The notes beneath the pieces are model-generated. The model made no database searches. It was not told where the DNA came from and was given only the letters and a program-made list of their open reading frames with translations. The position numbers were made by a program, and so were the translations under genes. 64,000 nt of DNA, from IMG/VR virus record IMGVR_UViG_2061766007_000856. One strand, 5' to 3'. The stretch is from an uncultured virus (IMG/VR IMGVR_UViG_2061766007_000856) (lineage: Duplodnaviria > Heunggongvirae > Uroviricota > Caudoviricetes). Each line of letters starts with the position of its first letter. Position 1 is the stretch's first letter. Positions 55,253 through 55,415 of this stretch are shown here, in pieces.

Positions 55253-55397
55253 GGTGTAGTTCAACTGCACCCGGATATAAGCTACGGGCAAACAAAAATC
55301 GGTCTTCGCTGGACCCACGCATCAAGAATTTTTACATTAAGTGCCCCCCGCTGTCTTCTGTCCAGCGATTCATTATAGAGGAAGACATGGGGGCACT
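55253..55397 (+). ncRNA. Putative structured leader RNA (hairpins plus pseudoknot)
   Basis: Hairpin 55253-55271; long stem 55340-55359/55380-55397; TCGCTGGAC 55306-55314 exactly complementary to loop GTCCAGCGA 55360-55368. Confidence 0.5.
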
Positions 55398-55415
55398 ATC
55401 CGTTCAGTAGGTGTC

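Follow-up and report, generated by a model that had tools for sequence, protein, structure and literature searches.

A conserved, predicted pseudoknotted RNA leader preceding a family-A-like polymerase gene in a clade of very large phages

The stretch of DNA analysed here (hereafter the window: 64,000 nucleotides (nt) of the uncultured tailed virus recorded in IMG/VR as IMGVR_UViG_2061766007_000856) carries a polymerase gene whose start codon, ATG 55416, is directly preceded by a leader capable of folding into a pseudoknot. As judged by comparison with the leaders of related phages, this pseudoknotted leader is a real and conserved RNA element, so far undescribed, in a clade of very large phages found in samples from animal guts, and we slightly favour, from its predicted fold and position, its assignment as a cis-acting translational control element of the polymerase mRNA. 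The pseudoknot-capable fold had been proposed in an initial annotation made from the letters of the window, and it was upheld: it is conserved, it shows compensatory changes, it belongs to the RNA of the + strand and it stands directly 5' of the start codon.

The folded leader and its conservation among relatives

Direct reading of the window located the main hairpin, P3, where the initial annotation had placed it, with the stem AGTGCCCCC (55340-48) and GGGGGCACT (55389-97) continued by TGTCTTC (55352-58) and GAAGACA (55381-87). At the start of the loop stands GTCCAGCGA (55360-68), to which TCGCTGGAC (55306-14) is exactly reverse-complementary, and both 9-mer pairings also appear in the inverted-repeat listing, as I7 and I8. 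The second hairpin, GGTGTAGT/ACTGCACC, was likewise found at 55253-71; the large hairpin lacks a U-tract, and from its end at 55397 there are 18 nt to ATG 55416. The elements of the folded leader are as follows.

55253..55271, + strand: hairpin H0, GGUGUAGU / ACUGCACC with loop UCA, near the inferred RNA 5' end
55274-78 with 55411-15: tentative extension P0, 5 base pairs (bp), which would cover -5 to -1
55275..55282, + strand: invariant octamer UAUAAGCU, partly the 5' strand of the closing helix
55281..55288, + strand: closing helix P1, 5' strand, GCU then ACGGG, from the RNAalifold consensus
55301..55315, + strand: local hairpin ALT, GGUCU, loop UCGCU, GGACC, which excludes the pseudoknot
55306..55314, + strand: pseudoknot 5' strand PKa, UCGCUGGAC, 102-110 nt upstream of AUG
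55340..55359, + strand: hairpin P3, 5' strand of the 18-bp stem
55360..55368, + strand: pseudoknot 3' strand PKb, GUCCAGCGA, the first 9 nt of the P3 loop
55369-79: pseudoknot loop L3, 11 nt
55380..55397, + strand: hairpin P3, 3' strand
55399..55408, + strand: closing helix P1, 3' strand, UCCGU, bulge UC, AGU, at -17 to -8 from AUG

The strand order (PKa, 25 nt, P3 5' strand, 0 nt, PKb, 11 nt, P3 3' strand) is that of an H-type pseudoknot with a short L2 allowing coaxial stacking. The same order recurs in two diverged relatives, L165 and L166, with an L2 of 0-1 nt, and in the comparisons below both stems appear backed by compensatory changes. L3 measures 11 nt over 9 bp in the window, 9 nt in the L013 group and 7-10 nt in L165, lengths that are adequate by the rule of thumb for crossing a groove. 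Excluding the pseudoknot term, the predicted stability of the structure was -37 to -61 kcal/mol, and the energies were -6.3 kcal/mol for the ALT hairpin and -15.7 kcal/mol for the pseudoknot duplex.

Taken alone, the window gives only moderate statistics. The hairpin 55335-55400 (-28.4 kcal/mol, z = -5.0) was equalled by none of 200 shuffles, and z for the whole leader (55185-55420, 236 nt) was -2.4 when read as + strand and -1.8 as - strand. In dinucleotide shuffles of 55240-55415, two perfect 9-mer inverted pairs arose in 16 of 2000 (at least one pair in 72 of 2000), and shuffling the upstream stretch gave a loop-to-upstream pairing equal to the observed one in 6 of 1000 cases; the 9-mer is confined to its two places in the 64-kb window. 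One sequence alone is suggestive, not convincing, and it is the evidence from aligned relatives that makes the observation solid.

Relatives were collected by protein-guided scans, which gave 4 viral and 15 metagenome loci, and by a second viral scan with a wider profile, which gave 52 loci. Fifteen leaders (13 distinct), with polymerases 70-99% identical, were aligned over their whole length (alignment A3), and RNAalifold predicted from them P3, P1 (55281-88 with 55399-408) and the local hairpin at 55301-15. Pairs were counted on A3 with the pseudoknot written in, and partners slid by 1-3 columns served as control. In the 13 distinct leaders, 98.2% of 455 cells were paired, compared with 41-50% when the partners were slid, and double changes were found at 7 pairs, which was matched by none of 500 shuffles. 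Covariation in homologues, on which the initial annotation had made its reading depend, is present, and the reading survives.

P3 comprises 18 pairs with 98.3% of cells paired, 4 of them double-changed and 6 varying on one side. The 9 pairs of the pseudoknot are 100% paired in 13 of 13 distinct rows, as are the 5 pairs of ALT (100% of cells, with 1 double change, in L022). P1 has 8 pairs with 96.2% of cells paired, one-sided variation at 4 of them and 1 double change, again in L022; read on the - strand, 62.5% of its cells would pair. The tentative P0 shows one double change (A-U to G-C). Among 11 distinct sequences, 10 (all but L021) form a hairpin at the place of H0 in their minimum-energy fold, its sequence differing by group (for example GGG.AUAG/CUAU.CCC in the L013 group, GCGGG.AUAG/CUAU.CCCGC in L022). 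Sixty of the 455 cells are G-U, and pairing amounts to 98.2% on the + strand versus 85.3% on the - strand; because G-U becomes A-C on the latter, the fold belongs to the + strand RNA and not to the - strand or to duplex DNA.

Both strands of the pseudoknot are identical in 12 of the 13 close-clade rows. L022 alone differs, with UCGCAGGGU/GCCCUGCGA, in which T-A has become A-T, A-T has become G-C and C-G has become a U-G wobble. Position 55313 in L022 changed together with both of its alternative partners, 55303 and 55361, and this dual pairing could explain why neither 9-mer has changed in 12 of 13 close relatives. Further away, L165 (66% protein identity) and L166 (55%) carry a long hairpin at the same place with an almost wholly different sequence, the first loop bases being again complementary to an upstream strand. 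In L166 the strands GCAAUCUCC/GGAGAUUGC make 9 perfect pairs (reached in 2 of 1000 shuffles), and in L165 UGCGUAUGGU/GUCAUGCGCA make 10 pairs including 3 G-U (reached in 12 of 1000), an adjacent 7-bp alternative pairing being also present in L165. In all of them the upstream pairing strand lies 70-101 nt past the promoter-like element described below, and the loop strand 0-1 nt after the P3 5' strand. Since the pairing is retained despite the different sequence, L165 and L166 settle the pseudoknot question, and the pseudoknot is kept with rewritten sequence in three diverged lineages (L022, L165 and L166).

The junctions and loops (55289-300, 55315-39 and 55369-79) vary in sequence and length, with the exception of the octamer UAUAAGCU, which is unchanged in 15 of 15 rows of A3 and present also in L165 and L166. 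One minimum-energy fold paired the AUG region with 55194-55205, a pairing that was set aside as not conserved by eye.

A covariance model of the element gave one match in the window (55234-55421, 185.6 bits) and found the element in 16 of 16 loci whose polymerase is 70-99% identical to that of the window; these loci represent 14 distinct contigs, L002/L013 and L003/L018 being the same records. The element is single-copy in each of two relatives of 198 kb and 253 kb, always before the polymerase gene, and was not found by the model in L004 or L023, two relatives with polymerases at 39-41% identity. Scans for the exact 9-mer pair returned 18 loci in viruses and at least 120 in genomes; of 98 such loci scanned with the model, 3 contained the element, all of them already known, and the other 95 were chance matches. 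The 9-mer pair alone is not diagnostic, because the pattern arises by chance in large collections.

The initial annotation had considered that the true start might be GTG 55341, in which case the stem would simply be coding. An in-frame, open GTG was found in just 3 of the 13 distinct leaders, all in the group of the window, and the other 10 have an in-frame stop; the open reading frame (ORF) of L002 starts at ATG. Indels in the leaders of A3 are not multiples of three, and no leader ORF is conserved among the 13 distinct leaders, where frame, length and end all differ. A 56-codon ORF of the window ending 6 nt before ATG is confined to the window and L010. By these comparisons the leader is not coding. 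No terminator was found, and P3 is only 18 nt away from AUG, which fits a leader that is part of the mRNA.

Transcript start, polymerase gene and intergenic region

Two further features frame the leader:

55205..55233, + strand: promoter-like element, TTGCTA (55205-10), 17-nt spacer, TAACTT (55228-33)
55416..56969, + strand: gene for a 517-aa family-A-like (TV-Pol-like) polymerase, starting at ATG 55416

The pattern used for the promoter-like element, TTG[AC][CT]N-N16-18-TA[AT][CTA]TT, has a single match upstream of the gene in each of the following: the window, L004, L023, L165, L166, L022, L013, L011, L019 and L021; the spacer is 17 nt in all of them. The block is unique in the window and was not listed by a sigma-70 scan. 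It ends 172-211 nt before ATG in the clade with 55-99% identity and exactly 7 nt before ATG in the 39-41% relatives L004 (2956-2994) and L023 (1456-1494); in L167/L168 (near 1150-1194), CTGCCA-17-TAATTT-7-ATG was read by eye. From this block we infer an RNA start near 55239-55243. If the block is a promoter, the polymerase mRNA of the 39-41% relatives would be leaderless, and because the block adjoins ATG in relatives without the domain, the structured leader appears as a clade-specific insertion of about 175 nt between this block and the start codon. Another candidate for a -10 box, TATAAGCT, was rejected: no conserved -35 accompanies it by eye, and H0, upstream of TATAAGCT, covaries.

A 22-codon ORF at 55143-55211 has a constant length in most relatives, and its stop, TAA in some and TGA in others, falls within the -35-like hexamer. 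It was rejected as a gene, being broken by 1-nt deletions in L018 and L019, and on this sequence evidence is probably not coding.

The initial annotation had called the downstream product a polymerase, and this is borne out by a family-A polymerase fold despite nothing from Pfam and PHROGs. No Pfam, PHROG or PDB sequence match was obtained for the protein, and Pfam over 59 family members gave no shared family, one member matching RNA_pol (PF00940) weakly (E 0.0055). A profile search with a cut-off of E 0.001 gave 3347 relatives, and with 1e-10 it gave 973. The AlphaFold2 model, built with the 59 family members as alignment, has a mean predicted local distance difference test score (pLDDT) of 90.8, and the best 50 matches of Foldseek against the PDB are all family-A DNA polymerases (E 9e-6 to 1.5e-4), with low template modelling (TM) scores of 0.23-0.36. 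Invariant over the 59 members are R244, H246, R257, D272, Q277, Y336, K359, Q414, E417, H441 and D442, and R355 is nearly so. The last motif reads HDS in the family consensus and HDE in the window protein and its close relatives, and the N-terminus MPETRTKFEY is retained down to the relatives at 39-41% identity. The TV-Pol family of Iyer, Abhiman and Aravind is described, in the available text of PMC2579912, by a palm with two catalytic Asp, an RxxxK in the fingers and an Arg in a beta-hairpin. Residues of the window protein that fit these features are R244 and H246, D272, R355 and K359, and H441 with D442. The name polymerase is supported by the modelled fold and by the motifs, and the likeness to TV-Pol by published features, not by sequence comparison.

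The polymerase gave 3 weak tblastn matches, in uncultured phage records of 636-735 kb, and unnamed clusters only in the ESM Atlas; no relative was found by a genome-contig scan with the polymerase profile, and no match by blastn of 54900-55500 against the phage collection. The window also encodes a 1252-aa tail sheath, a clamp loader, an SbcC-like protein, a 5'-3' exonuclease and a helicase, and is part of a large tailed-phage genome. Three + strand genes past the polymerase (57024-61215; 572, 326 and 488 aa) have no Pfam or PHROG match.

Genes left of 54904 lie on the - strand and those from 55416 on the + strand; because the gene strands switch there, the leader falls within a 511-bp divergent intergenic region. 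The ORF on its left side (54380-54904, - strand, 174 aa) has no family match, and its listed GTG start abuts the first copy of a 61-nt direct repeat (75% identity) at 54908-54968 and 55072-55132. The 18-mer core of this repeat, TCGTAAACATCTTTATGG, is invariant in both copies among aligned relatives. The window and the two relatives of 198 kb and 253 kb have only 2 copies each, too few for a genome-wide promoter, an idea that was rejected. L004, a 40% relative, has its own pair of a related 25-mer. We take the 61-nt repeats to resemble T7-type promoters or origin iterons. A conserved AT-rich box, CAGTATTATGTAAACTTAAATAATTTTTTAC..., occupies 55152-55195, between these repeats and the promoter-like element; it is unique in the window and a candidate DNA-unwinding or regulatory site. 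The cumulative GC skew has its minimum (-1.68) at 54001-56000 and rises afterwards; as this minimum coincides with the switch of gene strand, explanations by skew and by strand switch are inseparable.

Weighing of the explanations

Under the assignment as translational control element, about 55240 to 55415 would be the 5' untranslated leader of the polymerase mRNA, with H0 first, followed by a P1-closed domain that contains P3, the first 9 loop bases of which would pair with a strand 46 nt upstream. Because the gaps between them are 0 and 1 nt, the pseudoknot (9 bp), P3 (18 bp) and P1 (8 bp) can stack into a rod, which would end 8 nt before AUG. The element would act in cis and would most likely set or switch translation initiation. 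In bacterial initiation, stable structure near AUG is expected to limit binding of the 30S subunit, and here P1 at -17 to -8, possibly with P0 at -5 to -1, would have this effect. Competition of the pseudoknot and ALT for one strand could serve as a switch, at which the covariation of 55313 with both partners hints. As a first guess, the putative trigger would be a bound protein, possibly the polymerase itself; a protein is a likelier trigger than a metabolite because the junctions and loops vary freely, except for UAUAAGCU.

Several points weigh against this assignment or against parts of the fold. In the close clade the evidence for the pseudoknot rests on one lineage, L022, the double changes come mostly from few lineages and the shuffle controls ignore relatedness. 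The covariance model re-found the sequences from which it was built, missed L166 and gave L165 just 25 bits, and the folds of L165 and L166 were located by eye and then by script. The loop strand of L166 is followed by only 3-4 nt, a short span for a 9-bp helix. In L165 and L166 no P1 is evident, in L022 its register or partner is altered, and P0 is mismatched in L011/L012/L021, L018, L019 and L022; as far as these predicted folds go, occlusion of the ribosome-binding site (RBS) is not uniform across lineages. RNA data came from three RNA-library runs and one run of unrecorded type. They yielded sparse contigs of depth 2-3, at 55365-55536 (X1) and 54934-55125 (X2), none of which spans the leader and which are possibly DNA carry-over. 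Bovine gut metagenome is the label of the RNA-labelled runs with which the stretch shares words (X1-X3).

An extension of the protein-triggered scheme can be imagined in which the polymerase would bind the PK-P3-P1 rod of its own message as a mimic of primer-template, tying its synthesis to the enzyme at the adjacent putative origin, or in which the transcript would feed initiation there. We regard it as unlikely.

The domain might instead stabilise the mRNA, H0 and the knot protecting it from 5' end-dependent decay or blocking an exonuclease without any gating of translation. The place of H0 near the inferred 5' end, the very stable structure (-37 to -61 kcal/mol even without the pseudoknot term) and the uneven occlusion of the RBS among lineages all suit this explanation, but a simple 5' hairpin would suffice for it, and the pseudoknot topology and the competition with ALT are left unexplained, for which reasons we consider it distinctly unlikely.

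We give the same low standing to an RNA linked to an origin, acting as primer, R-loop former or polymerase ligand as at the ColE1 and T7 origins. The intergenic region does hold a genome-unique 18-mer in two copies together with an AT-rich box, its position coincides with the strand switch and with the minimum of the cumulative GC skew (54-56 kb), and the product is a minimal family-A polymerase, of the kind proposed to prime in the available text on TV-Pol (PMC2579912). However, the AT-rich box lies upstream of the structured domain, transcription of the domain runs away from that box, the domain abuts the start codon, and the GC skew is confounded with the strand switch. Moreover, the 39-41% relatives have the repeats and the polymerase without the domain, which is therefore not needed for the repeat-polymerase module.

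A metabolite-sensing riboswitch, in which the P1-closed domain with its pseudoknot would bind a small molecule, such as a nucleotide, as an aptamer and would gate translation of the polymerase, appears quite improbable. It would account for a closing helix, a hairpin and a loop-to-junction pseudoknot beside the start codon, an arrangement that we take to resemble several riboswitch classes, as well as for the octamer UAUAAGCU invariant in all lineages and for one strand with two alternative pairings. Yet no Rfam match was obtained at the gathering score or at E up to 10, P1 is not evident in L165 and L166, and the junctions and loops other than the octamer are variable, unlike the invariant cores of known aptamers.

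A feature of the DNA itself, either palindromes or a cruciform bound by protein or a stem that codes from GTG 55341, is highly improbable. In its favour, symmetrical change is also a property of inverted repeats to which dimeric proteins bind, neither 9-mer varies in 12 of 13 close relatives, and the window has an open frame from GTG 55341. Against it, the 60 G-U cells pair on the + strand only, three nested or crossing helices of fixed topology and free sequence are unlike operators, and 10 of 13 distinct leaders have lost the GTG start, with frames broken by indels.

Comparison with known leader elements

Control of polymerase translation by the leader, the assignment favoured here, has counterparts in several characterised systems, none of which matches the element in full. 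A search of Rfam, proposed as a check in the initial annotation, gave no family match: at the gathering score there were 0 matches in the whole window (Rfam 15), and at E up to 10 the region 54900-55450 gave 4 chance-level rows, the best being snoR136 with 18 bits against a gathering score of 43. No description of the element was found in the literature by a search that was not exhaustive and that left subscription journals outside its scope.

The initial annotation had likened the leader to those of the Rep genes of IncI/IncB plasmids, an analogy that does not hold. It is true that in both cases a leader hairpin loop pairs with a distant strand, and that a pseudoknot is tied to translation initiation in the plasmids (available text of PMC8053102). 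In IncI1/IncB repZ/repA, according to that text, a translated leader peptide and an antisense RNA are needed and the pseudoknot is essential for rep initiation. By contrast, the window has no conserved leader ORF or peptide, and its loop partner lies 5' of the hairpin, on its far side, 102 nt upstream of AUG. No antisense promoter was seen, a crude and simple consensus scan of 55200-55600 giving no promoter-like site on the - strand. The defining feature of these plasmids we take to be a distal pseudoknot strand beside the rep RBS, which is not the arrangement in the window.

In E. coli rpsO the pseudoknot includes the initiation region itself, whereas that of the window lies 48-110 nt upstream and the closing helix alone nears the start. 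The likeness of the two lies in a pseudoknot that alternates with hairpin forms, which in rpsO is a translational operator for S15 (available text of PMC3014915).

A phage polymerase gene preceded by a structured operator RNA near its RBS is known from gene 43 of T4 and RB69, where the polymerase represses its own mRNA (described in the available part of PMC3014915). The gp43 operator is a hairpin of 16-18 bases with a UAAC-type loop, for which that part of PMC3014915 gives no evidence of a pseudoknot, and the enzyme belongs to family B. The window leader, on the other hand, has about 175 nt with a pseudoknot and the product has a family-A-like fold; the two RNAs have no sequence relation, and autoregulation is here a guess.

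The closest likeness is to the gene 32 leader of T4, T2 and RB69, whose pseudoknot is an autogenous translational operator (PMC3014915, in the text available). Both are H-type pseudoknots, with stems coaxially stacked in gene 32 and able to stack in the window, in the 5' leader of a phage replication gene, cis-acting in gene 32 and predicted to be so in the window, and both are clade-specific, RB49 being without the gene 32 knot, as far as that text goes, and the 39-41% relatives without the window element. In T4 the knot is a small one, 67 nt upstream of the start; an unstructured A+U-rich tract comes after it, and gp32 spreads along this tract as far as the RBS (same text). In the window, by contrast, the stems measure 9 and 18 bp, the closing helix reaches -8 and there is no A+U-rich tract, the gap from P3 to AUG being 18 nt with 10 of them in P1. 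[quoted passage not shown]

Structured leaders controlling phage replication genes are known mainly from T4-type phages, and in the available text of PMC3014915 the gene 32 knot is presented as perhaps the only viral pseudoknot in translational autoregulation. The element stands before an unannotated family of minimal polymerases with more than 3000 members, and it is a candidate new RNA family for annotation. Its apparent insertion in front of an otherwise leaderless gene offers a natural comparison of genes with and without it, and with it a testable handle on the dosing of a replication enzyme in very large phages. A circuit of polymerase, origin and RNA, if true, is not described for phages of this size. 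Taken together, the window element would be a second example beside the T4-type leaders, unrelated to them and much larger, with a predicted role in translation.

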